32,000 nucleotides of DNA from Okeania sp. (GCF_035285525.1 NZ_JAYKGW010000059.1:1-32000); one strand, 5' to 3'; shown: positions 1,430-25,429, counted from the stretch's first letter. The notes: generated by a model from the sequence alone, not told the origin. Translations and numbers: made by a program.

Positions 1430-4400
1430 ATGACCAACACTGTTTATTCCAAAGCAGTAACATTTGTGAATACTTCATGTAAGAATGATATATTTGGTGC
1501 TAATGCAACAATATACAATAGGCTAAAGCCGGCTGACATAAATGGAAATATTGAATTAATAGGCAAGGATATTGTCTTAAAAAAAGATGATAACAATTAC
1601 TTTGACAAGTTGACGACGAGTCCAAATTCTAAAATTTCATCTGAAGAACCAAAAGTCAAGTTCAAAAATCTCATCATTGCCTGCGATGTTTTGGAAATTT
1701 ATGACGAATTAATCGTTCCAGAATGTAATGTCTCTATTTTTGCCAGAAAATTGATTGTCAAGTCAGGAGGATGTATTAATACCTCACCTCTGCCTTGGGA
1801 TCAACCCCATGCAAAAAACGCTGACTCAGAATCTGATGAGATTGACAAAGCCAAAGCCAGAGATGGAGCCAATGGAAGACATGCAGGCAATGTCAATTTA
1901 TTTGTTCGTGATTTGAAAATAGAGAATAAAAATAATCCGAATTTGAAAATAGAGAATGAAAATAATCCGATTATTAAGGCAAATGGAGGGAATGGGCAGG
2001 ATGCTGGTGAAGGTATGCATGGGAAAGATGGACATAGCGTGGAAAAATATTATGACCACGACTATGTTAGAATAGACAACGGTCATGATGCGGAGGATTT
2101 GGCTCATTTTAATTTCGATCCTCCGGCGACGTATTATGAATGGGAAAGTCGGTTCATGATGACAACGTATCCCATGGAATATGTAGGTTCCAAAGATGAA
2201 CCTACAAGTGGAACAAATGCTAAAAAGCCTGGTAAACCAGGCTCTCCTGGTAACGGAGGAAACATTATATCTAATCAATCTAATCAATCTAATCAATCTT
2301 TACATTATGAACTTAAGCCTGGAGAACCTGGAAAAAAAGCTCTTTACGTAAATGGTGGAGAAGCAGGAATACCTACAAAATCAGGCCAATATAAGATTCT
2401 GGTACACCGGGTACTTCACTTCTGGAACAAGACCGAATATTTAGAAAGTGATATTACTACAATTAAAACAACAAAAACCAAGAAGGGTACATCTTATGAA
2501 GCTCCTGACGCAGACAAGAAAGATGGTGAAAAGGGTACTTACCAACAAATAGAAAGCACTAATGCCTGGCTTCATCCGAAGCAGCTCCAAATCATTTTAC
2601 AGTGGGCTCGCGATGAATATTTAAAAAATCCCACTTCTATAGAAAAAATCGAAGAAATTCTTGAAGTTTATTCTGATGCTTTAAAAAAAGATGTACCTAA
2701 TGAGGATAGTTTAAAAATATGGAATGAGCGTAGTTCAAAAATAATGTGGAGTAAGGGTAAACAGAGAATTAATTCTCTATTAATACAAATTGCAGGAAAC
2801 AAAGATTACTTTAATAATCCTGCTGGTTATATGCCTGTTTTGAGTTTAAACACTACAATCAAGTTATATGAAAATAGTATCGAGGATGCTCTCAAGTCAT
2901 TGGTCTTTGCTAAGTTGGTGTCTAATTCATATAATAAAGCCATAGAAGAACAAAATTTCATCAAAAAAACTACTAAAGATATTGAGAGTAATTCCGAAGA
3001 GTTAGAGAACAATATTAAGGAAGTTGAAAAAGAACTTGAAACAGTAGACAGCAAGATAGACGTTGCAAAACGTAAATTGGATAAGCTATCTACTAAATTG
3101 GCAGACATTGAAACTCGGCTGAAAAATGAAGCTAGCAAGGATGAGAACAAAAAAGCGCAGATCACGTTTGGTTTAAAGATGGGGGCAGCCTTATTGCAGT
3201 TAATACCTTATGGGCAACCAGTATTAGGGGTTGTTGGTAAAATGACGAGTACCATTGCAGATAATCGGGGGGAAGACTTTACAAAACAGTTTGAAGGAGT
3301 TAAGGATGTATTTTCAGAAAATAAAGAAAGTCTGGAGAATGTACTAAAGAAAATCAAGGAAGGTATTCAAAGCAGTAAGAAAGCAACAAATGAGATCGCA
3401 ACTAGAAAGCGTAGTAACGCAATAATATTGTCCGAGAAGCCAGAAGTAACCATCCCCGGACAGAGTGAAGAAGTAAAACCAGAAGAGAAAAAAAATGAGG
3501 AAAGTGTATCGCAATGGTCATACATATCTAAAAATCTTAGTTCGCCAATATCTGACGTAATTGCTGGCTTTAGGGCGTTGAGTGTTCCTGAGTCTAAAAT
3601 TTTGGCACAAGCAGATCAACTCAAAACACAAGACGAAGAATGGAACCAAACTATCACAGAAATCAAAGAATTTACCAAGGAAAAGACAGAGTTATTCAGG
3701 GAATATCTAGCAACTTTGGAGTTACTTAGCAACTTATCATATAGACTTCAAGAAAATACATTTATGAGTTTAAAACTCGGAGATGAGGCCATAACAAAAA
3801 CAGGTGCTGCCGATCCTGATTTACTAGATTTTGCCCTTGAACTGGAAAATCGCTCTCAGGAGCAATTAATTTATCAATTGTACTTGATGACAAAAGCTTA
3901 TGAAACAACTGCTTTTGAGAAGTCAGAGATTAGCTGGCATAGAGATAATTTATTTGACAAAATAATAGATAATATCAAGGATAAGCCTTTTGAAGACTTG
4001 GACAAGACAGCAAGAGAATTGAGTCCGATATTTACGCAAAATTTAAACAAAATCAAACAGAAAACACTGAATTTTTTAACGGAGAAAAGGCATACATCCC
4101 ATACCTTTAATATTACTATCAGTGACCAATCAAACCCAAGTTTAATGAAGCAATTGAGAACAGAAGGAGAGATTTCTTTCAATCCTTTCGATTTTGGCCA
4201 TATCAGGCCAAAGTTCCATTACATGAAGTTTCAAACAATTGCTGAAATAAATATCCATTTTAAAGATAAAAACTCACAAACATCACTTGATTTACTTAAA
4301 TCAAACAATACTTATCCTCAAATAATAATCAAAGATGAGGGGGTTGTCAGAGTAAATGATGAAATATATATGGTAAGAAGTATTCCTCGTATTTTGACTT

Positions 4401-5377
4401 GGAGTATAAGGAAAGGTAAAAAAGATGAAGAGCCTGAACCTGAAAAAGAAAAGTTACGTCTAGATTCATCCAATAAGATCGATCAGTTCTTTCAGACAGT
4501 TATTGGGGATACTACGGGAGAAAAATGTCAACATTTAGCTCTACCCCCAGCATGGTCTGATATGAAATTTCAACTAAACAACGCCAGCTCTGAAAAACTG
4601 CTAGAAAATTTAGAATCTCTTGAGTTGACCCTAGAATATGAAGTAGTGGATACTCCCAGAGACGGGCAAGGCAATCAAAAGCAGTGTGTTATCGATCTGA
4701 GGAGTCCAAATGCTCCAGGCGCAAGCTTCGAGATCAGTGGGTTGAGTCAGGAAAAGATTCAGGTTGTTGGGCAATATTATGCAATAACGAAACAGCATAA
4801 GAAGATTGAAATTACCGCTAGCAAAGAAGCAAATGAGCTGAAATTTCTTGAATGGAACTTAGTTACGGAGAATGAAAAAGTAATAATAAAAGAAAAAACT
4901 ATCTCTGTAGATTTGAGCGACCAAAAGATCAGAAATAAACTTCTGAGAATTGAGTGTGTTTATGGAACTGAGGCTCAAGAAAGGGAAAGGGAAAGAAGAC
5001 ATACTCGCGCAGTATGTAAACCTTTGGGAAGTACAAAAGATTTTGAGGATATGCCTCCTATTGAGGATATTGCTTTTACAGTAGGAGTTGATGGAGTTGC
5101 TGCACCAGATGTTGAGAATTTTGCTATTGCAGGAGTTGATGGAGCTGGTACACAGTCTGTAATCTTTGAACTTCAAGCATTAACTTTATATTCTGAGCCT
5201 GACGATGATTCACCAGTAATAGATTGTGTCGAAGAAGATATGCTGACTTCATATAATGATGAGGGAGAAGATATTCCTTCGGGGTGGGCAAAGGTTACAA
5301 CTGATAGACTTACTGGATTTGTCAAAAAAGAAGACGTGGCTGAATTAAGGGTTGAACCTCACGGAGTGACAAACTAG
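1430..5377 (+). CDS. Orphan giant protein (1315 aa): Gly-rich N-terminal region, long coiled coils flanking one hydrophobic Gly-rich segment, beta-rich C-terminal third, SH3b-like tail
   Basis: Uninterrupted 3.9-kb ORF. AAGGAG sits 7 nt upstream of the ATG. Antisense ORFs inside it are shadows. C-terminal ...PSGWAKVTTDRLTGFVKKEDV resembles a bacterial SH3 domain. No family recognised. Confidence 0.85.
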   Translation: MTNTVYSKAVTFVNTSCKNDIFGANATIYNRLKPADINGNIELIGKDIVLKKDDNNYFDKLTTSPNSKISSEEPKVKFKNLIIACDVLEIYDELIVPECNVSIFARKLIVKSGGCINTSPLPWDQPHAKNADSESDEIDKAKARDGANGRHAGNVNLFVRDLKIENKNNPNLKIENENNPIIKANGGNGQDAGEGMHGKDGHSVEKYYDHDYVRIDNGHDAEDLAHFNFDPPATYYEWESRFMMTTYPMEYVGSKDEPTSGTNAKKPGKPGSPGNGGNIISNQSNQSNQSLHYELKPGEPGKKALYVNGGEAGIPTKSGQYKILVHRVLHFWNKTEYLESDITTIKTTKTKKGTSYEAPDADKKDGEKGTYQQIESTNAWLHPKQLQIILQWARDEYLKNPTSIEKIEEILEVYSDALKKDVPNEDSLKIWNERSSKIMWSKGKQRINSLLIQIAGNKDYFNNPAGYMPVLSLNTTIKLYENSIEDALKSLVFAKLVSNSYNKAIEEQNFIKKTTKDIESNSEELENNIKEVEKELETVDSKIDVAKRKLDKLSTKLADIETRLKNEASKDENKKAQITFGLKMGAALLQLIPYGQPVLGVVGKMTSTIADNRGEDFTKQFEGVKDVFSENKESLENVLKKIKEGIQSSKKATNEIATRKRSNAIILSEKPEVTIPGQSEEVKPEEKKNEESVSQWSYISKNLSSPISDVIAGFRALSVPESKILAQADQLKTQDEEWNQTITEIKEFTKEKTELFREYLATLELLSNLSYRLQENTFMSLKLGDEAITKTGAADPDLLDFALELENRSQEQLIYQLYLMTKAYETTAFEKSEISWHRDNLFDKIIDNIKDKPFEDLDKTARELSPIFTQNLNKIKQKTLNFLTEKRHTSHTFNITISDQSNPSLMKQLRTEGEISFNPFDFGHIRPKFHYMKFQTIAEINIHFKDKNSQTSLDLLKSNNTYPQIIIKDEGVVRVNDEIYMVRSIPRILTWSIRKGKKDEEPEPEKEKLRLDSSNKIDQFFQTVIGDTTGEKCQHLALPPAWSDMKFQLNNASSEKLLENLESLELTLEYEVVDTPRDGQGNQKQCVIDLRSPNAPGASFEISGLSQEKIQVVGQYYAITKQHKKIEITASKEANELKFLEWNLVTENEKVIIKEKTISVDLSDQKIRNKLLRIECVYGTEAQERERERRHTRAVCKPLGSTKDFEDMPPIEDIAFTVGVDGVAAPDVENFAIAGVDGAGTQSVIFELQALTLYSEPDDDSPVIDCVEEDMLTSYNDEGEDIPSGWAKVTTDRLTGFVKKEDVAELRVEPHGVTN

Positions 5378-6481: not shown

Positions 6482-7582
6482 TTAATTTTTCTTCTGCTGA
6501 TTTTTTTGGTCTAAAACAACTTCTTTTAAAGCTTGGAATGAACGAGAGTTTGATGCTCCTTCGATCGCTTTGACTGCTAAATCTTGAACCTGAATTAATG
6601 TGGAATCTAATTGTTGAGATAAACTCTTAATCCGCTGTTCTTGATTATGAATTGTTTGTTGTAAAGATTGAATGCGCAGTTCATAATATTGTTTTTCTCC
6701 ATCTACTTCTTTTGCTAATAAATCGGCTTTAACTTTGGCTTGATAATTACCAATATTTCGCCCATTTTCTTTTCCATTTTTAATATTAGTTTCTAGCTGT
6801 TTTTCAAAGTCTTGTACTTTTAATTCTACTTCAGCATATTCTTTTTCCCGTTCAGAAATAGACTGTTCTTTTTCTGACCATAACTTCTCCTGTTCTTTTT
6901 GAGATTCTTCTAATTCATTATACAAATTTTTCTTGTTTTGTTCATATTCATCAATATCTAAATCTCGTTGCAAATCCAAATCATATTGATAAGTTTCTGC
7001 CTCCCGTTGCCGAACTTTATTTTCCTGTTCATTTCGTTCTTTAATATTGCGTTGATATTCCTGTTGTTCCTTCTCCCAAGTTTTTTTACTAGACTCCATT
7101 TCCTGTTGTAAATTTTCCTGGCGATCGCTAAATTCAGCTTCAAATTCTTTAGAGTTTTGTTCATATTGTTGAATCAAATTATCTAAAGTATTGTCTTCAA
7201 CATTTTCTAAATTATGTAAATGGTTTAATTGTTTAATTTCTTCTGCAACTTTTTCTCTAACTTCTCCTAATTTAGTAGCTTCTGAAGTGAGCTTTTCTGA
7301 TAATTCGCTAATAGCTCCACCAAAACCATTTTGGAGTGCGAGTAAATTTTCAATTGTATATTGCATAGTTTGTTTGTTAAGAGTTTGATTTGATTTCATA
7401 GTTTGTTTGACCTCTTTTTCTGGTTGATTTGAACTGGAATTTGCAGATGTTTGAGTAGTAGCTTTTCCTCCCTGACTTAACTGTTCTATTTCTGCTTCTA
7501 AGAAAGAATTTTCTGATTTTAATTCCTGAAAAGCTTGTAAAATTTCAGCTTTGGTACTTTTAGAATTAACTGATTTAGTCAT
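6482..7582 (-). CDS. Coiled-coil protein (366 aa), paralogue of 8237..9232
   Basis: Long K/E/Q-rich ORF with AGGAGA upstream of the ATG. Shares WEKEQQEY...YQYDLDLQR and the C-terminal KVKADLLAKE..YELRIQSL..QVQDLAVKAIEGAS blocks with the neighbouring gene. Confidence 0.8.
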   Translation of the reverse strand: MTKSVNSKSTKAEILQAFQELKSENSFLEAEIEQLSQGGKATTQTSANSSSNQPEKEVKQTMKSNQTLNKQTMQYTIENLLALQNGFGGAISELSEKLTSEATKLGEVREKVAEEIKQLNHLHNLENVEDNTLDNLIQQYEQNSKEFEAEFSDRQENLQQEMESSKKTWEKEQQEYQRNIKERNEQENKVRQREAETYQYDLDLQRDLDIDEYEQNKKNLYNELEESQKEQEKLWSEKEQSISEREKEYAEVELKVQDFEKQLETNIKNGKENGRNIGNYQAKVKADLLAKEVDGEKQYYELRIQSLQQTIHNQEQRIKSLSQQLDSTLIQVQDLAVKAIEGASNSRSFQALKEVVLDQKNQQKKN

Positions 7583-8236: not shown

Positions 8237-9232
8237 TTATTTAGATTGAGAACTATTATTAGAACTAGCAAAAGCTCTCATTGCTAAATCTTGTGTTTGC
8301 TGAATAGCAGCTTGTAACTGAGTAGAAATATCACTAATTTGTTCAGTTTGTCGCTGAATAGTTTCTGACAAAGATTGAATTTTTAATTCATAACCATTCT
8401 TCATTCCTTCCCATTCTTTGGCAAATAAATCAGCTTTAACTTTTGCCTCCCGGTTGGCTTCTTGAACTGCCTCTTCTTTAGCTTTAACAAAAGCCTGTTT
8501 CAACTCTTCTTCAAAACCATTAACTTTCTCTCTGTCTGCTTCAAATTTAGTTTGATTTTCTGCCAAATAACTTTCCCTTTCTTGCCATTGTTTTTCTTTT
8601 TGTTGACCTAAATATCGTAATTCTCGTTCCATATTTCGTTTCATTTCTTCGTAGTCATCTGTTTCAATTTTACGTTGACGTTCTAACTCATATTGATAGT
8701 CAGAAACCTCTTTTTCCCGTTGTTTAATTAACAATTGATTTTGTTCTTCAATTGTTAATTCAAACTCTTGTTGTTCTTTTTGCCAAGCTTTGCGCTTAGT
8801 CGTCATATCTTTTGTCAAATTTTCTTGATGTTCGTTAAAATTACGTTCTATTAACCCTAACTTTTCTTGATGTTCTTGAGTTAAAATATGGAGTGCATCA
8901 GCAACAACCCGAATTTTTTGTAACTCTTGTAAATGTTGATTTTCTATTTCAATGGCAAGTTTTAATTCATTAAGTTTTGCCGATTCTTGGTGTAAGTTTT
9001 GTAATAATTGGTTCACAATACTACCAAAATCTAATTGTAGATCGGCTAAACCTTTAACAATAGTATCATTAGTATAAGTAACAGCAGTTTCTAAGATTTG
9101 TTTACCTTTTTCTTTCTCTGCTTCTTCCTCCTTAGTTGCTACTTTTGATGTGATATTTTTGCGAGCATTTAAAATTTGCTCAAAGGATTTCATTACTTTA
9201 AATTTGCTGTTTTCAGAAGTAGTTGTTGTCAT
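8237..9232 (-). CDS. Coiled-coil protein (331 aa), paralogue of 6482..7582
   Basis: WQKEQQEF...YQYELERQR and KVKADLFAKE..YELKIQSL..QTQDLAMRAFASS align with the 366-aa neighbour. GAGAGGAAA sits upstream of the ATG. Confidence 0.8.
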   Translation of the reverse strand: MTTTTSENSKFKVMKSFEQILNARKNITSKVATKEEEAEKEKGKQILETAVTYTNDTIVKGLADLQLDFGSIVNQLLQNLHQESAKLNELKLAIEIENQHLQELQKIRVVADALHILTQEHQEKLGLIERNFNEHQENLTKDMTTKRKAWQKEQQEFELTIEEQNQLLIKQREKEVSDYQYELERQRKIETDDYEEMKRNMERELRYLGQQKEKQWQERESYLAENQTKFEADREKVNGFEEELKQAFVKAKEEAVQEANREAKVKADLFAKEWEGMKNGYELKIQSLSETIQRQTEQISDISTQLQAAIQQTQDLAMRAFASSNNSSQSK

Positions 9233-11783: not shown

Positions 11784-12050
11784 CTAATTAAGTAGTTGTG
11801 AAAATTTTCCTGGTTCTGGATATTTATAATCTGTAGTTGCTTGTTCCTGAGCTTTAATGATTCGTAATGCTCCCACTAAATGCTCTAACATTTCTATGTG
11901 AGCAGGAGTAAAGTGAATACTGAAACCTTCCCCATCCCTGGCATAACCTGGGCACACAAGAGAGGCAGCATTCTGTTCTTCATGGGTGGCAATATACAGC
12001 CAATCTTCGTCTTCCAATTTGTAGTGGGTCTCTGTCCAGGTTCTTAGCAT
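11784..12050 (-). CDS. Hypothetical protein (88 aa), first gene leftward of the XRE/ImmA divergent promoter
   Basis: ATG at 12050 is preceded by GGAGGA. The longer tracked ORF (to 12125) would start without an RBS. Confidence 0.5.
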   Translation of the reverse strand: MLRTWTETHYKLEDEDWLYIATHEEQNAASLVCPGYARDGEGFSIHFTPAHIEMLEHLVGALRIIKAQEQATTDYKYPEPGKFSQLLN

Positions 12051-12147
12051 GATGGTATCCTCCAGGTGGACTATACTTGTGAAGACTAAGGGTAAATTTA
12101 CAATTAGCCAATTTGACCATGACACTATATATAGAGTATGATTTTGA

Positions 12148-12263
12148 TTGACTGAATTTTCAACCTTACCAGTAGTGTAATTTAATTGACTTTTTTATCA
12201 ACTTAATTTTATTGTAGCGCTTGTTGATTTAAACGTCAAGCAAAAAGTTGAAATTTTCATCAA
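12148..12263. promoter_or_regulatory. Four TTGA-N8-TCAA palindromic-arm sites (candidate XRE operators) in the divergent intergenic region
   Basis: TTGACTGAATTTTCAA 12148-12163; TTGACTTTTTTATCAA 12186-12201; TTGATTTAAACGTCAA 12224-12239; TTGAAATTTTCATCAA 12248-12263. Start-to-start spacing is 38, 38 and 24 bp. Confidence 0.6.
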
Positions 12264-12298: not shown

Positions 12299-12640
12299 GT
12301 GGTAAACAGTTTTGGAAATCTAATTAGAAAGGCCCGCAAGGACAAAGGATACTCCCAAAGGGAGTTGGCCAAAAATCTAGGAGTGGACTTCACCTATTTG
12401 TCCAAGCTAGAAAACGATCGCGCAGACTATGCGCCAAAAGAAGAAGTGATTCGCGGACTAGCGAAGAATCTCAATTTGAATCCAGAGGAATTAATTTTCC
12501 TGGCTGGGAGGATTCCTCAACAGTACCAGGAAATTCTCAGGCAAAATCCTAGAGAGATGCTAGCATTATTCCGACGAGTACAAGAAAATCCTGAGTTTGC
12601 TCAAAGAATATCTCAAGCAGCAAGGGAGAATGATGTATGA
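12299..12640 (+). CDS. XRE-family helix-turn-helix transcriptional regulator
   Basis: IRKARKDKGYSQRELAKNLGVDFTYLSKLENDR is a classic HTH_3 signature. Strong RBS. 4-bp ATGA overlap with the next gene. Confidence 0.85.
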   Translation: MVNSFGNLIRKARKDKGYSQRELAKNLGVDFTYLSKLENDRADYAPKEEVIRGLAKNLNLNPEELIFLAGRIPQQYQEILRQNPREMLALFRRVQENPEFAQRISQAARENDV

Positions 12641-13320
12641 GTATCCTGAAACCCTATAGCTTTTATCGCAAAGAGTCGATTGAGCATCGGGCAAATGATA
12701 TTCTCAGACAAATGCACAAAACCAGCAATTTTGCTCCCAGTTGGCCTTTTGATGCTTCTTTGGTAGCTGATTTTTTGGATTTGGGAGTAGTTTGGGATAA
12801 AATTCCGCCTGATAAAGAAGGAGCGATCGCTGCTCGAATATTACCAACAGAACGACTGATTGAAATCAATGAGGAAATTTTAGACAAACCTCAAGGATTT
12901 CAAGAATCAACTCTAGCTCATGAAATTGGTCATTGGGTGCTACATATTAATCAGGACGAAGCAGATGGAGTTGTGAAACAGTTAGAACTGGCTCTTGGTG
13001 ATTACGGAAAACCAAAAGAGTCGGAAGAACCTTTTGTGTGTCGGGGTGCAGATAAGAGTAAAATAAACTCTATCGAATGGCAAGCACAATATTTTGCTGG
13101 TTGTTTATTAATGCCGAAATCTATTCTGGAAGAGAAAAGACAAGGCAGAGATTTAACCAAGTGGTCAAACCTTTATAAAATCAAAGATGAGTTAGGGGTG
13201 AGTATTTCTAATTTGACTTACCGTTTGCAAGAGTTTGGCTGGATTTCGATACCAAAAGGTAGTCGCACAATTTATCGGGGTGCTGTTGAAGTTAAGGGAC
13301 AAACACATTTGTTTGGATAA
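12637..13320 (+). CDS. ImmA/IrrE-family (COG2856-type) zinc metallopeptidase
   Basis: HEIGHWVLH (HExxH) motif with downstream E...QAQYFAGCLLMP. Translationally coupled to the XRE gene. Confidence 0.8.
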   Translation: MSILKPYSFYRKESIEHRANDILRQMHKTSNFAPSWPFDASLVADFLDLGVVWDKIPPDKEGAIAARILPTERLIEINEEILDKPQGFQESTLAHEIGHWVLHINQDEADGVVKQLELALGDYGKPKESEEPFVCRGADKSKINSIEWQAQYFAGCLLMPKSILEEKRQGRDLTKWSNLYKIKDELGVSISNLTYRLQEFGWISIPKGSRTIYRGAVEVKGQTHLFG

Positions 13321-13360
13321 GCTTCTGATACTAATTTGTTCAAGATATGCAAAATTTGAA

Positions 13361-13826
13361 CCCTCCTAACCCCTTGAAAATGGGGTTAGGGGGGATCGCA
13401 AGGTCAGGTTTTACCAAAAAATCAAGTCCAAAGTCTCCCCTTTTAAGGGGATGAAAAAGCGGTCGAGGGATGGCGAGGTTTCCTCACCATATCCAATCGA
13501 CCAAGAGAAATATTTAACTTCAGTATTTCCAACCTCCGACTAAACTCGGAGGTTCACTCTCTACTGATTGATAACTGATTAGGATTTACCCATGAACGCT
13601 TAAAATGATGCAATAGATGTAGGTTGGGTTGAGGCACGAAACCCAACAGCAACAAAGCTTTGTTGGGTAGAACGACAGTGAAACAAAACCTACATTTTTA
13701 GATGAAACGGTCTAGTAGGGTGCGTTTTCCGCGCTTGAGCGGACATAAAACGCTACGCGACATGAAAAGCGGTAGCGTAACTGAGCAAGACTCCATATCA
13801 TATATAGTACCTTTGGGTAAGTCCTG
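13361..13826. repeat. Intergenic mosaic of hairpin repeats and one composite AGGA(C/T)TTAC-ended element
   Basis: CCCTCCTAACCCC/GGGGTTAGGGGGG hairpin at 13361-13394 (could also act as the terminator of the ImmA gene). CTCCCCTTTTAAGGGGA..AAAAGCGGTCG module is shared with 24410-24540. GGAGGTTCACTCTCTACTGAT is shared (inverted) with 29080-29110. Element at 13581-13826 has ends AGGATTTACCCATGAACGC / CCTTTGGGTAAGTCCTG. Confidence 0.7.
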
Positions 13827-13876
13827 TAATATTTACTCACCTGACTTTATTCTATCTAATTTTTTTCAATTCCTAG

Positions 13877-14446
13877 TTAACTTTTTTTGGCTGCTAAGTT
13901 AGGTACTTGAGTAAAAGAGTTAATGAAATTTTGAATCTGGTTAATATTATTTGTCCATAGTCCAGTTTCTTCATAGTATTTATTAGTTTTTCCAGGTTGA
14001 GAACAGAGAATATTGGCGCTAGTTACTACAGCAAATTTATCATCACATACCCAATATTTAGAGTGAGTTCCCATCAGTTTAAGTTGAAAATATTGAGGGT
14101 AAAGTAGTTTAAGTTCTTGTAGTTTAAACATAGCATTATATTTCCAAGTATTAGGAGGTGTTAATTTCCACCAACCATTACCAGGAATAATTATATTATC
14201 AAGATCTTTTTGCCATCCCCAACCAATCTCTATTTTTACTTGGCGGTTCAGGGTATTTTTTAATTCTTGAATTAGGTTATTATCGAGACTATGAAGAGTT
14301 AAGAAATGGCAAACAATAATGATTTTTTCTTGAGCTTGATGTCGGGTTTTGAGGAGTAAATAACGATGTTGATATTTACCATGAATAATTCTTTGACAGT
14401 TAAAGGGATTAGTATTTTTCCAATGAGAATTAGTGGTTGAAAACAT
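13877..14446 (-). CDS. Phospholipase-D-superfamily protein with a single HKD motif (Nuc-like nuclease candidate)
   Basis: GTHSKYWVCDDKFAVVTSANI is H-x-K-x4-D followed by the (G)S-x-N region. Size (189 aa) fits single-HKD members that dimerise. Confidence 0.7.
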   Translation of the reverse strand: MFSTTNSHWKNTNPFNCQRIIHGKYQHRYLLLKTRHQAQEKIIIVCHFLTLHSLDNNLIQELKNTLNRQVKIEIGWGWQKDLDNIIIPGNGWWKLTPPNTWKYNAMFKLQELKLLYPQYFQLKLMGTHSKYWVCDDKFAVVTSANILCSQPGKTNKYYEETGLWTNNINQIQNFINSFTQVPNLAAKKS

Positions 14447-14579
14447 TTGTATATTTCCTAATTTGAATGTCTGAATATACTATTGCAGTTATTTTTAGGA
14501 GATATCTTTCAAACATAGGCTGACATAGACTGACATAGGCTAACATATCTCTAATTTTTGGGTAAACTTATTCTTTTAA

Positions 14580-14726
14580 ATATAGCATTTCCTAGGCTAG
14601 TAAGGTACATTGATAATCCCCCTAAATCCCCCTTCGAAAGGGGGACTTTTTGTTCACTTCCCCCCTTTCAAAGGGGGGCAAGGGGGGATAGAAAACTGTA
14701 CCTCACAAGTATGGGAATTGCTATAT
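14580..14726. mobile_element. MITE-like insertion (147 bp) between the PLD and NACHT genes
   Basis: Imperfect ~30-bp terminal inverted repeats, ATATAGCATTTCCTAGGCTAGTAAGGTACA / TGTACCTCACAAGTATGGGAATTGCTATAT, enclose two G/C hairpins (CCCCCTTCGAAAGGGGG, CCCCCCTTTCAAAGGGGGG). Confidence 0.55.
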
Positions 14727-14788
14727 CTTTGATTTATAATAGTTTATCTAGTTGGAAATACTATTTGAATATAAATAATAATTATCTG

Positions 14789-17173
14789 ATGTCTTTACCA
14801 AAAGATTTTTTAACTGACATTGCCAGAAAATATGAACTTTCCCCAGAACAAGAAGAAGTCTTTATAGAAGTTTTTAGCACTGGAAAGTCAGACTTAGAAA
14901 TAGCACAAAAGCTCCATATATCTGATTCAACATTTCGTACTCGGATGAGCAATGTTTATAATAAATTTAGCATAGGAGGTAAAGGACCTGGTAAACGGAA
15001 TAAGCTACAAAACTTTTTAGTAGATAAATATCGTTCTAGTAATTTCTCTGAATCTAATCAAGTTGATCTTTCCCCAGACAATATTAATGATTTAGTAGCC
15101 AAAGTACGTCTAAATATTCGAGAAATTATTTTAGACAAATGTGGCACTATGAAAGTATTAGATATGAATCAATCTATTGGCTTAAATGATATTTATACAA
15201 ACGTTAATATCTTGGAAAAAATCACGGGTCGGATAAGAAAAGATATTTCTCAAATTTATAAAGAGTACAATGCTGAAAATTTTGAACGTTTTGAAATTGG
15301 TGAAGTTAGTCAGGAAAGAATACCGGGAATAGAAATTGTTAAACGTTATTCAAAATTGATGGTTTTAGGTAAACCAGGAGCAGGAAAAACTACATTCTTA
15401 AAATATTTAGCTATTCAATGTATTGACGGATATTTCCTTACAAATCTTGTGCCAATTTTTATTACTCTCAGACAGTTTGCAGAGGCAGATAATCAACCTA
15501 CTATACTAGAATATATAACTCATTTTTTTTCTGATGATACTGTTTCTGATATAGAAATAGATAGCCTTTTCAAAAATGGCAGAGCATTAATTTTACTTGA
15601 TGGTTTGGATGAAGTTAGAGAAGCAGATTATAATCATGTATTAAAACAAATTCTGCATTTTTCCACTCAATATTCTAAGAATAAATTTGTCATAACTTGT
15701 CGCATTGCTGCACGGGAATATAACTTTGATAAATTTACAGATGTACAAGTAGCTGACTTTGATAATGAGCAAATAAACAATTTTGCTAATAATTGGTTTA
15801 AATCTAAAAATCCAGAGATAGGTAAGAAATTTATTTATAAACTTCAGGAAAATCAACCAGTTAAAGAATTAGCTACAAATCCTTTATTATTAACTCTTTT
15901 ATGTTTAGAATTTGAAGATTATTTGGATTTTCCCACAAATCGTTCTGAACTTTATGAAAGAGGAGTAAATATACTTTTAAGTAAGTGGGATGCTAAACGT
16001 GGTATTGAACGAGACCAAGTTTATAAAATGTTATCTCTGAGGCGAAAAGAAGACTTGCTTAGTCAGGTTGCTGTGAAAACTTTTGAACGGGGCGATTACT
16101 TTTTTAAACAAAAAGAATTACAGGAAAAGATTGTTGTTTATATTGAAAATTTACCTGATGCTAAAACCGATCCAGAAGCTTTGTTGATAGATAGTGAAGC
16201 AGTGTTGAAATCTATTGAAGCACAGCATGGATTATTTGTAGAAAGAGCGCGTGGTATTTATTCTTTTTCTCATTTGACTTTTCACGAATATTTTACAGCA
16301 AGGGGAATTTATGCAACTTCTAATGGTTTAAAAATTTTGGTAAATCATGTTAGTGAAATTCGTTGGCGCGAGGTGTTTCTGTTAGTAGCTGGTATGCTGC
16401 AAAATGCTGATGAATTTTTGTTATTAATGAAGGATAAAATTGATAATTTATTAGCACAAGATGAAATATTACAAAGCTTTCTAAACTGGGGTCATCAAAA
16501 AGCTAGTTCAATTAAACTGCCATTAAAAGCTGCTAACATCCGTGCTTTTTACTTAGAACTAGAGGAAGACTGTGCTTACGATGATACTATGAGAGCTGGA
16601 ATATATTCAAAATTTGTTGATGAATTATTAGAATTTAGGTATATAGATACTGATGAATTAAAAAATTACTTTATCTACTATTATTCCTCAGCAGATTATC
16701 ATACTTTTAACAATTATATTGTGCTAGATAAAAAGTTTCAAAGCCTGTTTACTGATGCTTATTATGGGAATTATTCTGTTTTATCCGAAGATATTGAAAG
16801 TATTTTAAATTTTGACCTGGAACCAAATCTTGAATATTCACTTCAACACCTCAAAAATAAACTACCTAATTACCAACAAGACGAACAAAATATGAACGAG
16901 TGGTGGAAAATAAATGGTTATAATTGGATTCAAGAATTAAGAGATATAATGATGGCATATAGAAATATTGGTCACGACTGGCAACTTACCCAAGAACAAA
17001 TGCAATTTAATGAAGAAAAAATAGAATTACTGCAAAAATATTATGACGCTAACGAACTGCTAATAGAATGTTTAATGAGTGATTATTTTGTCACTCGTGA
17101 AGTAAGAAATAAAATCGAAGAAGAATTATTTTTACCCATTGCTGAAATTGAAAAAAGGAAAGAACAAAAATGA
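14789..17173 (+). CDS. STAND NTPase: N-terminal LuxR/sigma70-region-4-type HTH + NACHT P-loop domain + all-helical C-terminal domains (794 aa from ATG 14789)
   Basis: HTH: LSPEQEEVFIEVFSTGKSDLEIAQKLHISDSTFRTRMSNVYNKF. Walker A: VLGKPGAGKTTFLKYLA. Walker B: ALILLDGLDEV. Then TCRI..., NPLLLTLLC. No WD40, TPR or LRR repeats seen. The tracked ORF's first 77 codons run through the MITE-like repeat, so I prefer the internal ATG. Confidence 0.8.
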   Translation: MSLPKDFLTDIARKYELSPEQEEVFIEVFSTGKSDLEIAQKLHISDSTFRTRMSNVYNKFSIGGKGPGKRNKLQNFLVDKYRSSNFSESNQVDLSPDNINDLVAKVRLNIREIILDKCGTMKVLDMNQSIGLNDIYTNVNILEKITGRIRKDISQIYKEYNAENFERFEIGEVSQERIPGIEIVKRYSKLMVLGKPGAGKTTFLKYLAIQCIDGYFLTNLVPIFITLRQFAEADNQPTILEYITHFFSDDTVSDIEIDSLFKNGRALILLDGLDEVREADYNHVLKQILHFSTQYSKNKFVITCRIAAREYNFDKFTDVQVADFDNEQINNFANNWFKSKNPEIGKKFIYKLQENQPVKELATNPLLLTLLCLEFEDYLDFPTNRSELYERGVNILLSKWDAKRGIERDQVYKMLSLRRKEDLLSQVAVKTFERGDYFFKQKELQEKIVVYIENLPDAKTDPEALLIDSEAVLKSIEAQHGLFVERARGIYSFSHLTFHEYFTARGIYATSNGLKILVNHVSEIRWREVFLLVAGMLQNADEFLLLMKDKIDNLLAQDEILQSFLNWGHQKASSIKLPLKAANIRAFYLELEEDCAYDDTMRAGIYSKFVDELLEFRYIDTDELKNYFIYYYSSADYHTFNNYIVLDKKFQSLFTDAYYGNYSVLSEDIESILNFDLEPNLEYSLQHLKNKLPNYQQDEQNMNEWWKINGYNWIQELRDIMMAYRNIGHDWQLTQEQMQFNEEKIELLQKYYDANELLIECLMSDYFVTREVRNKIEEELFLPIAEIEKRKEQK

Positions 17174-17672
17174 TATATAAAACCCAAGGAGCAAATACAA
17201 CTATTGAAAAATAAATCCTATCTTTTTAATTTCATAACTCCCGAATTACAAATTAATATTTCCTAGATTTAACACTAGGTTTAACTTAAACCAATACAGA
17301 CTTATATTTGTCTATAAACTGGCGATCGCCTCACTGCCCAAATCTAATTTTTCCAGTGGCGTTGCACAATTAGGAATGATGAAGTCTGAAAGTAGATATT
17401 TTTAGATAATTCTTTTATTTATATATCTAGAGTTACTAAATAATTAATAATTAATAATTAATAGTTAATAGGTGATAGGTGATAGTCAGTAATTATTCAT
17501 TCAACAATTCACGCCTTGAAGCCTCCCTTTTTAAAAGGATAAATCAAAAAATTTCCTTGGAGTCAATCTCCTTCTTTGAAGAAGGGATAATTATTAATTA
17601 TTAATTGTTCATTATTAATTACTGAAAAACCGATTATCATTCTTTAATGTGCAACCCCCTAATTATAACTAT

Positions 17673-23446: not shown

Positions 23447-23670
23447 GTTATTTTAAGTAGTAGAAAATATATTTTCTAGGTTGTGTTAGAATATGAATCA
23501 GGACTTACGCAAATACTCTCTGCTGAATGCTTACCATGAGTTTATAGATCGATACCTTACGAATTTTGGTATTATCTGAACTGTATTGTATTATTCTTAG
23601 GTTTCCTTTCTCAACCCAACCTACGCTTATTACTAATTTACTTTATTTATTGCTATTAAGAAGAATAATT

Positions 23671-24318
23671 ATGCTCAAAACTGTTCCTAAAAAATCTGAA
23701 ATTTTAACTGATACTTGGCAACAAATTAGCTGGCAATATTTTCTGCAATTAACTAATCAATCTGTATATAAAAATGGTAAATTTTATTATGACCGTGGTT
23801 ATATGAAAATTGAAATGAGTCCCTTAGGTATGAGTCATGGCAGAGATAATGCTATTGTTGCTAGACTAATTAGTTTATTTGCCACTTTAAAAAATATTCC
23901 AGTTGTAGAATTTACTAATGTTAGTTATCGAAAAGCAGAAATTAGAGAATGTCAACCTGATTCATCTTTTTATCTGGGAAAAGTAGCAAATCTTCCGACT
24001 AGAAGTAATCAAGCTATTGATTTAAACCAATATGCACCACCGACATTAGTAATAGAAATTGCTACTACCAGTTTGGGTGATGATTTAGGTTCTAAAAGAT
24101 TACTCTATGAAAAACTGGGAGTGCATGAATATTGGGTTATTAATACTAATAATTATGATGTAATTGCATTTGAAATAATTGATGGTGGTAGTCGAGAAAT
24201 ACAAATTTCAAATGTTTTACCTGGATTGGAAATTTCATTAGTAAAAACTGCTTTAGAGCGGAGTGAAAATGCTGATGATGGTGAAGTTAATCGTTGGTTA
24301 ATTAAACTTTTTAGTTAG
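23671..24318 (+). CDS. Uma2-family (DUF820) putative endonuclease, intact
   Basis: ...YYDRGYMKIEMSPLGMSHGRDN...QPDSSFYLG...PPTLVIEIATTSLGDDLGSKRLLYEKLGVHEYWVIN is a typical Uma2 layout. ATG at 23671 (MLKTVPKK) is preferred because the upstream part of the tracked ORF crosses a repeat. Confidence 0.8.
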   Translation: MLKTVPKKSEILTDTWQQISWQYFLQLTNQSVYKNGKFYYDRGYMKIEMSPLGMSHGRDNAIVARLISLFATLKNIPVVEFTNVSYRKAEIRECQPDSSFYLGKVANLPTRSNQAIDLNQYAPPTLVIEIATTSLGDDLGSKRLLYEKLGVHEYWVINTNNYDVIAFEIIDGGSREIQISNVLPGLEISLVKTALERSENADDGEVNRWLIKLFS

Positions 24319-24826: not shown

Positions 24827-25429
24827 ATGTCTTATAGTCAATTTACTTTAGAAACAGTTGAACAAACTTTTGGGATAAATATTGTTGAAAAGCCAAAACT
24901 TTTCAACAAAATTCCAGAAATAGAAATTAGTGATTTCTTAAAACAATGCCTGGAATACAATACTCCTTTAGCTTTAGAAATTGCTACAGAAAAAGCTAGA
25001 TCGGAAATGATTATTACACCAATTTTGATTGAACTAAAACAACAATTCAAATCAAATATTAGTCTTTTTTCCGGTAGAGAATTTAATGTAGATAGCCAAT
25101 TAGGATTGATTGGTTATTGCGATTTTATTATTAGTAAATCTCCATCTCAATTAATTATTAAATCTCCAGTTGCTATAATTGTAGAAGCGAAAAATGATAA
25201 TATTCAATCAGGTTTAAGTCAGTGTATTGCTGAGATGGTAGCAGCACAAATAGTTAATCAACGGCAAAACAATAATCAAACAATTTATGGCTCTGTCACT
25301 ACTGGTACTAACTGGAAATTTATGAAATTATTTGATAAAGTAGTAGAAGTCGATCCTAATGAATATTTCTTGAATAATATCCCTAAATTAATGGGAATAT
25401 TACGAAGTTTTATTGAGTCAGAAAATTAG
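24827..25429 (+). CDS. Hypothetical protein with a PD-(D/E)xK-like nuclease motif (HsdR-N-like fold candidate)
   Basis: GYCDFIISK...VAIIVEAKNDN gives a D...E-x-K arrangement. 200-aa clean ORF. Confidence 0.5.
   Translation: MSYSQFTLETVEQTFGINIVEKPKLFNKIPEIEISDFLKQCLEYNTPLALEIATEKARSEMIITPILIELKQQFKSNISLFSGREFNVDSQLGLIGYCDFIISKSPSQLIIKSPVAIIVEAKNDNIQSGLSQCIAEMVAAQIVNQRQNNNQTIYGSVTTGTNWKFMKLFDKVVEVDPNEYFLNNIPKLMGILRSFIESEN

Follow-up and report, generated by a model that had tools for sequence, protein, structure and literature searches.

The stretch of DNA considered here (the window) comprises 32,000 nucleotides of an Okeania sp. contig (GCF_035285525.1, NZ_JAYKGW010000059.1:1-32000), in which a first-pass annotation had brought four genes together as one candidate defence-type module: an XRE-type helix-turn-helix (HTH) regulator, an ImmA/IrrE peptidase, a stand-alone phospholipase D (PLD)-superfamily protein, and a NACHT protein, i.e., a nucleoside triphosphatase (NTPase) of the signal transduction ATPases with numerous domains (STAND). 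All four open reading frames (ORFs) and the features described for them were found where that annotation had placed them (Table 1). These genes belong to two separate units, the XRE/ImmA pair on the one hand and the PLD gene, a spacer, and the divergently oriented LuxR-HTH-NACHT-NCH2 gene on the other. The second unit constitutes the core module and is the main subject of this text.

The PLD protein had been noticed because of its single H-x-K-x4-D motif, and profile and structure comparisons agree with this assignment. The protein scored 28.1 bits with PLDc_2 (cut-off 27) and matched the PADLOC models MkoB (4e-15) and MkoC (1e-10), in both cases in their PLD parts. Within an alignment of 38 family sequences, H128 and K130 do not vary, and conservation reaches at least 90% for D135, S143, and N145; the catalytic residues are also invariant in six orthologues. 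Compared with the group motif HxK(x)4D(x)6GSxN, threonine replaces the glycine. An AlphaFold model, which reached a predicted local distance difference test (pLDDT) score of 90.2 with the 38-sequence alignment and only 39.6 with a six-sequence alignment, matches NucT, Nuc, and Zucchini (Foldseek, probability 1.00), with target-normalised TM-scores of 0.64-0.70 to Nuc and NucT; the PLD profile gave no matches when it was searched against the PDB sequences. By motif and fold, the protein can be assigned to the single-HKD nuclease group, and it is predicted to form a homodimer and to cleave nucleic acids. It consists of the catalytic domain alone (aa 18-180 of the model), without an adaptor or effector-associated domain (EAD), and its gene is under purifying selection (median ratio of nonsynonymous to synonymous divergence, dN/dS, of 0.19 among orthologues and 0.26 for pairs involving the window copy). 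The family consensus residues P47 and W48 lie inside a CPW motif, where the window copy has H47/F48.

One HxK(x)4D(x)6(G/T)SxN motif and the same fold are shared with Nuc, NucT, Zucchini/MitoPLD, MkoB/MkoC, and DrmC. However, the partner of the PLD protein is a STAND NTPase here, which is different from Mokosh and DISARM. In the case of Mokosh, the PLD part alone matches (query aa 16-178 to residues 982-1132 of the 1136 in MkoC), and this system was rejected because no neighbour was found to encode its RNA helicase (MkoA or, in MkoC, the N-terminal part). DISARM was also rejected, since matches to DrmC were weak (E 7e-4 or worse) and neither DrmA nor DrmB is encoded in the window.

For the NACHT protein, NCBI has an Okeania sp. 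entry (P0001) with 100% identity. The protein starts with the ATG at 14789 (MSLPKDF...), which is the start in all homologues, and an ORF that opens with a TTG at 14558 is a read-through of a repeat-element insertion in the spacer. The Walker A motif, a Walker B motif of the D-[GAS]-h-D-E form, and the Pfam score place the protein in the NACHT clade within the STAND NTPases, as had been proposed, and its C-terminal helical region, previously described only as such, matches NCH2 ('NACHT C-terminal helical domain 2'). The N-terminal head, predicted earlier to be a LuxR-type HTH, can indeed be assigned to the LuxR/GerE type: the GerE score is 21.5 bits for the full-length protein, which is below the cut-off of 23.5, and 26.7 bits for the isolated N-terminal 92 aa, and the family profile matches GerE in the PDB (1fse, E=6e-4), in addition to VpsT and CviR. 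NCH2 is preceded by a hypervariable low-complexity stretch (~16500-16830, variable alignment columns 720-890), and divergence is faster in the C-terminal third than in the NTPase core (65% vs. 89% identity to the related locus L010). A search for the NACHT-NCH2 family yielded more than 6,700 proteins with ~50% identity over the full length, and the HTH-NACHT-NCH2 family is almost confined to filamentous multicellular cyanobacteria.

Table 1. Features of the core module and of the neighbouring XRE/ImmA pair (positions counted from the first nucleotide of the window)
Feature	Position	Strand	Remarks
HTH-NACHT-NCH2 STAND NTPase, proposed sensor and transcriptional switch	14789-17173	+	794 aa
LuxR/GerE-type HTH	14837-14974	+	aa 17-62; GerE on the isolated domain; PDB matches GerE, VpsT, CviR
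NACHT NTPase core	15356-15805	+	Pfam NACHT PF05729, 48.4 bits vs. 26.7
Walker A GKPGAGKTT	15368-15394	+	invariant in a 22-sequence alignment
Walker B LLDGLDE	15593-15613	+	invariant in a 22-sequence alignment
NCH2	16829-17137	+	PF22727, 103.9 bits vs. 27
Stand-alone single-HKD PLD-superfamily nuclease-like gene, proposed effector	13877-14446	-	189 aa; PLDc_2, MkoB/MkoC models, structure model
Catalytic motif H128-x-K130-x4-D135-x6-T-S143-A-N145	14012-14065	-	38-sequence family alignment
Effector-side promoter/operator block	14447-14583		~100 nt; 69% mean column identity with 10 other loci
Three tandem 10-bp direct repeats, proposed LuxR-type HTH site	14513-14547	+	ACATAGGCTG / ACATAGACTG / ACATAGGCTA; spacing 10, 10
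Insertion like a miniature inverted-repeat transposable element (MITE), G/C-rich hairpins	14584-14722		139 bp; blastn breakpoints vs. L010, L011, L012, L019; inverted repeat
XRE-HTH	12299-12640	+	GTG start; 113 aa; HTH_3 E=5.7e-14
ImmA/IrrE peptidase	12637-13320	+	227 aa; Peptidase_M78 E=4e-11; HEIGH present
Probable XRE operators, four TTGA-N8-TCAA palindromes	12148-12263		spacer between XRE and the divergent ORF 11784-12125

The association of the PLD gene with STAND genes, on which the proposed module depended, is conserved. Thirteen non-redundant related loci from Okeania, Trichodesmium, Dapis, and Microcoleaceae were compared, one of them with a truncated PLD gene and one with an internal stop. 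In all 13, the PLD gene is divergent from a STAND gene that ends in NCH2, with a spacer of 146-563 bp, and this arrangement is found in at least four flanking contexts (XRE/ImmA; ArgJ; a tRNA synthetase with FtsX or DUF1822; GT2-tetratricopeptide repeat (TPR)). Orthologues of the PLD protein (71-88% identity) are restricted to Okeania, Trichodesmium, Dapis, and other Microcoleaceae. With regard to the two decayed copies, that of Okeania SIO2C9 (L015:8001-8573) is a pseudogene with an internal stop, the substitution C134F, and a 277-bp insertion in the spacer, and that of L020 (8001-8168) is cut to 56 codons, the NACHT gene of the same locus also appearing to be frameshifted.

The STAND partner itself is a mosaic, of which four types can be distinguished. 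Type A, i.e., LuxR-HTH, NACHT, and NCH2, is found in the window, L010, L011, L012, L019, and L020; type B, in L001, L003, L009, and L015-L018, consists of HTH_VMAP-M9, an AP-ATPase-like NTPase, and NCH2; type C, in L005 and L006, combines EAD4 with the same AP-ATPase-like NTPase as type B and NCH2; and type D, an intact ORF in L008, comprises HTH_VMAP-M9, a window-like linker, NACHT, and NCH2. The C-terminal ~280 aa are the sole segment common to type A and types B and C (33-37% identity). One genomic context hosts different STAND types, and one type is found in different contexts. In the Dapis hybrid L008, both the HTH_VMAP-M9 head and a type-B spacer are joined to a window-like NACHT-NCH2 body. 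The nucleotide similarity of the window to L010, L011, L012, and L019 is limited to positions 13870-17185, which bracket exactly the PLD and NACHT genes. Divergence between the spacers begins directly after the PLD ribosome-binding site, and thus the PLD promoter region belongs to the swapped STAND cassette. In comparison with L010, synonymous divergence is ~0.10 for the NACHT gene (14789-16348, dN/dS ~0.5-0.6) and ~0.20 for the PLD gene; this inequality indicates different recent histories of the two genes, which fits cassette exchange. Just downstream of the type A gene, L011 (1026-1433) and L019 (4727-5164) carry fragments of a second NCH2 C-terminus that are closer to type B and C STANDs and that resemble the remains of a gene replaced in situ. 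In L005, the EAD4-type partner has a spacer (2569-2756) with TTGGGAAcTTCCCAA-type palindromes, which are unrelated to the type A and B spacers and to the XRE operators.

The spacer between the PLD and NACHT genes (14447-14788) is 342 bp long in the window vs. 199 bp in close relatives, and the MITE-like insertion, which is absent from the relatives, lies between the operator and the NACHT start. These G/C-rich hairpins are of the CCCCCTTCGAAAGGGGG type, and similar elements occur in the gap between the ImmA and PLD genes (13340-13480 and 13600-13700). On the effector side, the block of ~100 nt remains 69% identical across loci with ~50%-identical NACHT proteins and unrelated effector genes, and its consensus, read in the direction of the effector, is (ATGTCAGnCn)x3-ATGTTTGAGCGAAATCTCCCA-N7-TTGnGAnAGTnGATTTAG. 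The triple repeat within this block is a single site in the window, where none is expected by chance. For the wider family, 4 genomic and 80 metagenomic loci were sampled, and 71 loci were typed by their head; about a third of these carry the LuxR head. Of the 21 LuxR-type NACHT-NCH2 genes, 14 have the triple repeat upstream, vs. none of the 50 with other N-termini, and the repeat occurs just 15 times in 1.1 Mb. In addition, CTGAC[AT] is enriched 7-fold upstream of LuxR-type genes on the NACHT strand. Upstream regions of HTH_VMAP-M9-type genes share no common motif, conservation being found only within subgroups.

The geometry of the repeats points to the divergent gene. Fourteen loci were scored, and the start of the repeats is 62-79 bp from the ATG of this gene (72-79 bp in 13 of them; for L027 the distance was measured from its S3 gene), with the NACHT ATG anywhere from 33 to 363 bp away. 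In the window, the distance to the PLD ATG is 74 bp, and a -10-like TAGTAT is located ~36-41 nt before this ATG. By comparison with class II activators, the repeats would cover and lie upstream of the -35 region. A scan of the spacer for sigma-70 consensus sites returned 6 sites vs. 6.1 expected. The suggestion that the HTH-NACHT protein acts as a transcriptional switch for the divergent gene thus has strong comparative support from this spacing, which is kept across genera and in front of unrelated effector genes.

The PLD gene is not the only occupant of this position. No PLD gene was found upstream of the NACHT gene in 66 complete loci of the wider family, and the PLD protein was therefore rejected as a general partner of HTH-NACHT-NCH2 proteins. 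Elsewhere, the slot holds small divergent genes for predicted membrane proteins of 60-120 aa (families S1-S6), located in L021-L104 ~100-370 bp upstream of the NACHT genes. They fall into at least five conserved families, or at least six by the count for L021-L104. One of these is Pfam CyanoTRADDas_TM (PF20712), and the others are without a Pfam family; these small membrane proteins are candidate toxins. At one locus, the slot encodes a 217-aa protein with a weak, sub-threshold PD-(D/E)XK match. The absence of PLD from the wider family and the presence of other small genes in its place make the PLD gene a lineage-specific occupant of a general slot. Hence, the pairing of PLD with HTH-NACHT put forward at first pass holds in the Okeania group and does not extend to relatives with ~50% identity, which carry other small genes. 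Among NACHT-NCH2 genes without the LuxR head, those in L083, L084, L092, L104, L073, and L087 adjoin genes for OmpR-type response regulators, and a conserved ~200-aa protein is also encoded beside such genes in L072, L073, and L087; this is a conserved context of another kind.

In immune-type NACHT scaffolds, the N-terminal output slot is usually occupied by a fused toxin, and the bacterial proteins similar to nucleotide-binding leucine-rich repeat receptors (NLRs) that have been studied to date kill, to our knowledge, by means of a fused effector or an adaptor-recruited effector. By contrast, regulators such as MalT and the other large ATP-binding LuxR-type regulators (LALs), GutR, and AfsR and the Streptomyces antibiotic regulatory proteins (SARPs) oligomerise in an NTP- and ligand-driven manner and bind at least three direct repeats, located either at the -35 region of an activator-dependent promoter or upstream of it; in AfsR, an N-terminal DNA-binding head is followed by the NTPase and the sensor. 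The protein described here resembles these regulators in that a STAND NTPase is joined to a DNA-binding domain, in the case of AfsR even in the same order. However, MalT and AfsR have a MalT-type or AP-ATPase NTPase rather than NACHT, the LuxR HTH of MalT is C-terminal and the head of AfsR is an OmpR-type winged HTH, their sensors consist of TPR/SUPR repeats instead of NCH2, and their targets are metabolic or antibiotic operons. Membership in the MalT/LAL family was rejected because the HTH is N-terminal here, the NTPase is NACHT, and no TPR matches were obtained.

The locus and its relatives suggest an intermediate between these two groups, namely, an immune-clade NACHT protein whose output would be the transcription of a separate, swappable toxin gene. 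By analogy, we infer that the logic of the circuit is that of a MalT- or AfsR/SARP-type activator built on an immune-type NACHT scaffold. The NCH2-containing C-terminal region, together with the hypervariable stretch, would sense the trigger, upon which the NACHT module would bind or exchange NTP and oligomerise. The N-terminal LuxR-type HTHs clustered in this way might then occupy the three helically phased 10-bp direct repeats, which would overlap the -35 region of an activator-dependent promoter, and the effector gene would be turned on. PLD dimers would subsequently cut nucleic acid, and in the sister systems the small membrane proteins would damage the membrane.

At first pass, no named system with a LuxR-HTH-NACHT protein and a stand-alone single-HKD PLD protein was known to the annotator. 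The combination HTH+NACHT+NCH2 has, however, been recorded from Nostoc PCC 7120 by Kibby et al. 2022/2023 (bioRxiv 10.1101/2022.07.19.500537, Table S1), who place it in clade 6, and the NACHT protein, which matches by this domain order and by its NCH2 score, therefore has an already catalogued architecture. According to the same authors, clade 6 also contains TIR-, caspase-, HEPN-, Schlafen-, and EAD4-NACHT-NCH2 proteins and includes bNACHT25 and bNACHT32, which are experimentally anti-phage, and HTH heads are classed as 'adaptors' that possibly activate a transcriptional response. Common features are the D-G-h-D-E Walker B motif of NACHT, a C-terminal NCH-type domain, and a variable N-terminal output slot. 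However, bNACHT25 and bNACHT32 are single genes with a fused restriction endonuclease and NCH1, whereas the killing function would here reside in a separate, swappable gene. Kibby et al. describe no partner effector gene, operator, or promoter geometry, and no paper on HTH-NACHT operators or partner genes was found in the literature searched; PLD is not mentioned by Kaur et al. 2020, 2021 (PMC7159879, PMC8195603) or in a 2026 STAND survey, which regards transcription-regulating STANDs as non-immune. The operator, the swappable effector slot, and the coupling to PLD are not described in the literature searched. Also close are the EAD/adaptor-coupled STAND conflict systems of multicellular bacteria described by Kaur et al. 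(PMC7159879, PMC8195603), which are likewise enriched in filamentous cyanobacteria and likewise show a separate effector and rapid swapping of heads; moreover, one PLD partner has EAD4, and one sister effector is CyanoTRADDas_TM. In those systems, coupling is mediated by homotypic adaptor domains on both proteins, whereas PLD here is without an adaptor and coupling appears to proceed via a DNA operator.

Based on the domain content, the conservation of the pair, the swapping of cassettes, and the conservation and geometry of the operator, all of which are directly observed, we assign a probability of roughly 0.55 to the reading that the PLD and LuxR-HTH-NACHT-NCH2 genes form a two-gene conflict module of the defence or abortive-infection type, in which an NTP-driven, NLR-like transcription factor would induce a separately encoded effector. 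Several points weigh against it. Its functional side, from DNA binding and induction to nuclease activity and phage defence, is deduced from comparative data, PADLOC named no system, and known defence genes were not found immediately adjacent. CTGAC-like half-sites are enriched upstream of non-LuxR members too (2.6-fold), and the co-inheritance of HTH and operator within the Okeania group could be simple linkage because the sequence coding for the HTH lies physically next to the operator, so that only the cross-genus conservation of the operator argues for function. In L005 and L006, the N-terminus of the PLD partner is an EAD4 adaptor and not an HTH, and transcriptional control by the STAND protein therefore cannot explain this variant. 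Distant stand-alone PLD homologues (~30% identity; Hassallia, Trichormus, and Richelia) have no STAND neighbours and reside in other operons, and the PLD gene has decayed in L015 and L020. In the window itself, the MITE separates the operator from the NACHT gene, and the PLD protein carries P47H and W48F at positions that are at least 90% conserved in the 38 sequences; considering both, this copy of the module may be impaired. It should be added that the exact PLD sequence of the window was not found in the protein collection, though the neighbouring NACHT protein was, and the window PLD copy may be weakened or unannotated.

Among the alternatives, the same circuit might serve not against phages but as a programmed-cell-death or stress switch of filamentous cyanobacteria, for example in bloom collapse or in the sacrifice of damaged cells. 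The near confinement of a large family to filamentous multicellular cyanobacteria, the many paralogues per genome (Kibby et al.), the prevalence of housekeeping genes rather than defence islands in the flanking contexts, and the absence of an adjacent PADLOC system would be in agreement with such a role. On the other hand, the neighbours in clade 6 bear immune effectors of the classical kind, anti-phage activity has been shown by experiment for two members, and both a hypervariable C-terminus and the swapping of cassettes among close relatives are typical marks of an arms race; we therefore regard a cell-death switch outside immunity as rather unlikely, although Aravind-type analyses describe immunity-linked apoptosis and the two roles are not mutually exclusive. 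Coupling might also occur between the proteins, with a STAND oligomer that binds, activates, or scaffolds a constitutive PLD protein via its NCH2-containing C-terminal region and with an HTH that merely autoregulates. That this region (~280 aa) is the sole segment common to the four types of PLD partner, and that the EAD4-type partner has no DNA-binding head, speaks for this possibility. It is nonetheless unlikely, given that the PLD protein offers no adaptor or EAD beyond its catalytic domain, that NCH2 proteins of the wider family occur without PLD, that the C-terminus of NLR-type proteins is normally the sensor (Kibby et al.), and that the operator keeps a fixed distance from the effector ATG but not from the NACHT ATG, which argues for control of the effector promoter.

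Adjacency could further be a matter of chance, the PLD gene marking a recombination hotspot at which STAND genes are exchanged, with PLD and STAND as independent single-gene systems. Four STAND mosaics at one site, the 3' NCH2 remnants of replacement in L011 and L019, more distant PLD homologues in other operons, and HTH-NACHT-NCH2 genes without PLD elsewhere can all be read in this manner. This explanation is quite improbable, however, in view of the adjacency in every one of the 13 loci, across at least four contexts and with sharp module boundaries; the PLD start codon lies at the same distance from the operator (74 bp) as that of unrelated effector genes in other genera, and no further conserved promoter region exists for PLD, as the swapped cassette starts at its ribosome-binding site. 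Least probable, and in our opinion hardly tenable, is the three-part system implied by the first-pass annotation, with XRE/ImmA as the master switch: in response to damage or phage, it would derepress both the PLD and the NACHT gene. Physical proximity of these genes is seen in the window, L005, and L008, and CapH/CapP-like pairs, whose models are matched here in PADLOC, are known beside defence operons. Yet the pair is absent from 10 of the 13 PLD-STAND loci, including the ArgJ, tRNA-synthetase, and Trichodesmium contexts that carry PLD; the ImmA and PLD genes are convergent, with 556 bp of repeat-rich DNA between them; the four candidate XRE operators are all confined to the spacer between XRE and the ORF 11784-12125, with no copy near the PLD or NACHT genes; and the synteny of XRE/ImmA is with the leftward genes. 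For the same reasons of linkage, an assignment of PLD/NACHT to a CapH/CapP-regulated defence operon was rejected.

If the proposed transcriptional module is correct, it may be generalised, although only tentatively and at somewhat less than even odds: the LuxR-HTH-NACHT-NCH2 genes of filamentous cyanobacteria might represent a general class of NLR-like immune transcription factors with a portable promoter/operator cassette of ~100 nt (3-4 phased 10-bp repeats whose distance from the start codon is fixed) that drives an interchangeable, separate toxin. The toxins of such a class would include the PLD nuclease, a possible PD-(D/E)XK nuclease, and at least five families of small membrane proteins. 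The class would be a bacterial counterpart of the transcription-regulating NLRs CIITA and NLRC5 and would provide a third wiring of STAND sensors to effectors, beside fusion and adaptor domains. From a practical viewpoint, the cis-element and the small HTH domain of the locus lend themselves directly to binding studies, and new small toxins of cyanobacteria could be sought 72-79 bp beyond the repeats. The locus is also an example of natural exchange of sensor/regulator genes beside a constant effector. It may also give a handle on virus- or stress-triggered cell death in the bloom formers Trichodesmium and Okeania.

The XRE/ImmA pair, in contrast to its earlier inclusion in the module, is best described as a switch of its own that serves the genes on the opposite side, as judged from the position of its putative operators and from synteny. 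The two ORFs overlap by 4 bp, and the top PADLOC models are capH (1e-10) and capP (8e-17). In its overlapping XRE-HTH and M78 genes and clustered palindromic operators, the pair is similar to CapH/CapP, ImmR/ImmA, and DdrO/IrrE; it differs in that it faces a leftward set with phrog_29668-like proteins and is unlinked to PLD-NACHT elsewhere. Four of the five TTGA-N8-TCAA matches in the window cluster, evenly spaced, in the spacer upstream of XRE (expectation for the whole window, 1.5), and the cluster recurs at the equivalent position in the syntenic loci L005 and L008. These palindromes are probably XRE operators that control the uncharacterised leftward genes. The genes that travel with XRE/ImmA encode proteins of 113 and 254 aa and two coiled-coil paralogues that match phrog_29668. 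The paralogues (6482-7582 and 8237-9232, minus strand) are 35% identical. Because these paralogues are syntenic with XRE/ImmA in L005 and L008, the leftward coiled-coil set may be an XRE/ImmA-controlled system or a prophage remnant. Near them, a 1315-aa coiled-coil protein without a family match is encoded at 1430-5377 (plus strand).

Neither tRNA genes nor Rfam families were detected across the window, and a scan of the flanking genes with PADLOC and PHROGs revealed no named system adjoining the module. The region had no plasmid match, and viral contigs contain just one distant relative of PLD; thus, the region is not evidently of plasmid or phage origin. Located 6-8 kb downstream of the NACHT gene are a gene for a putative endonuclease of the Uma2 family (23566-24318; PADLOC candidate PDC-S17, E=2e-18) and a gene for a PD-DExK protein (24827-25429) that matches the CRISPR-associated PD_DExK model of PADLOC (E=1.5e-51).

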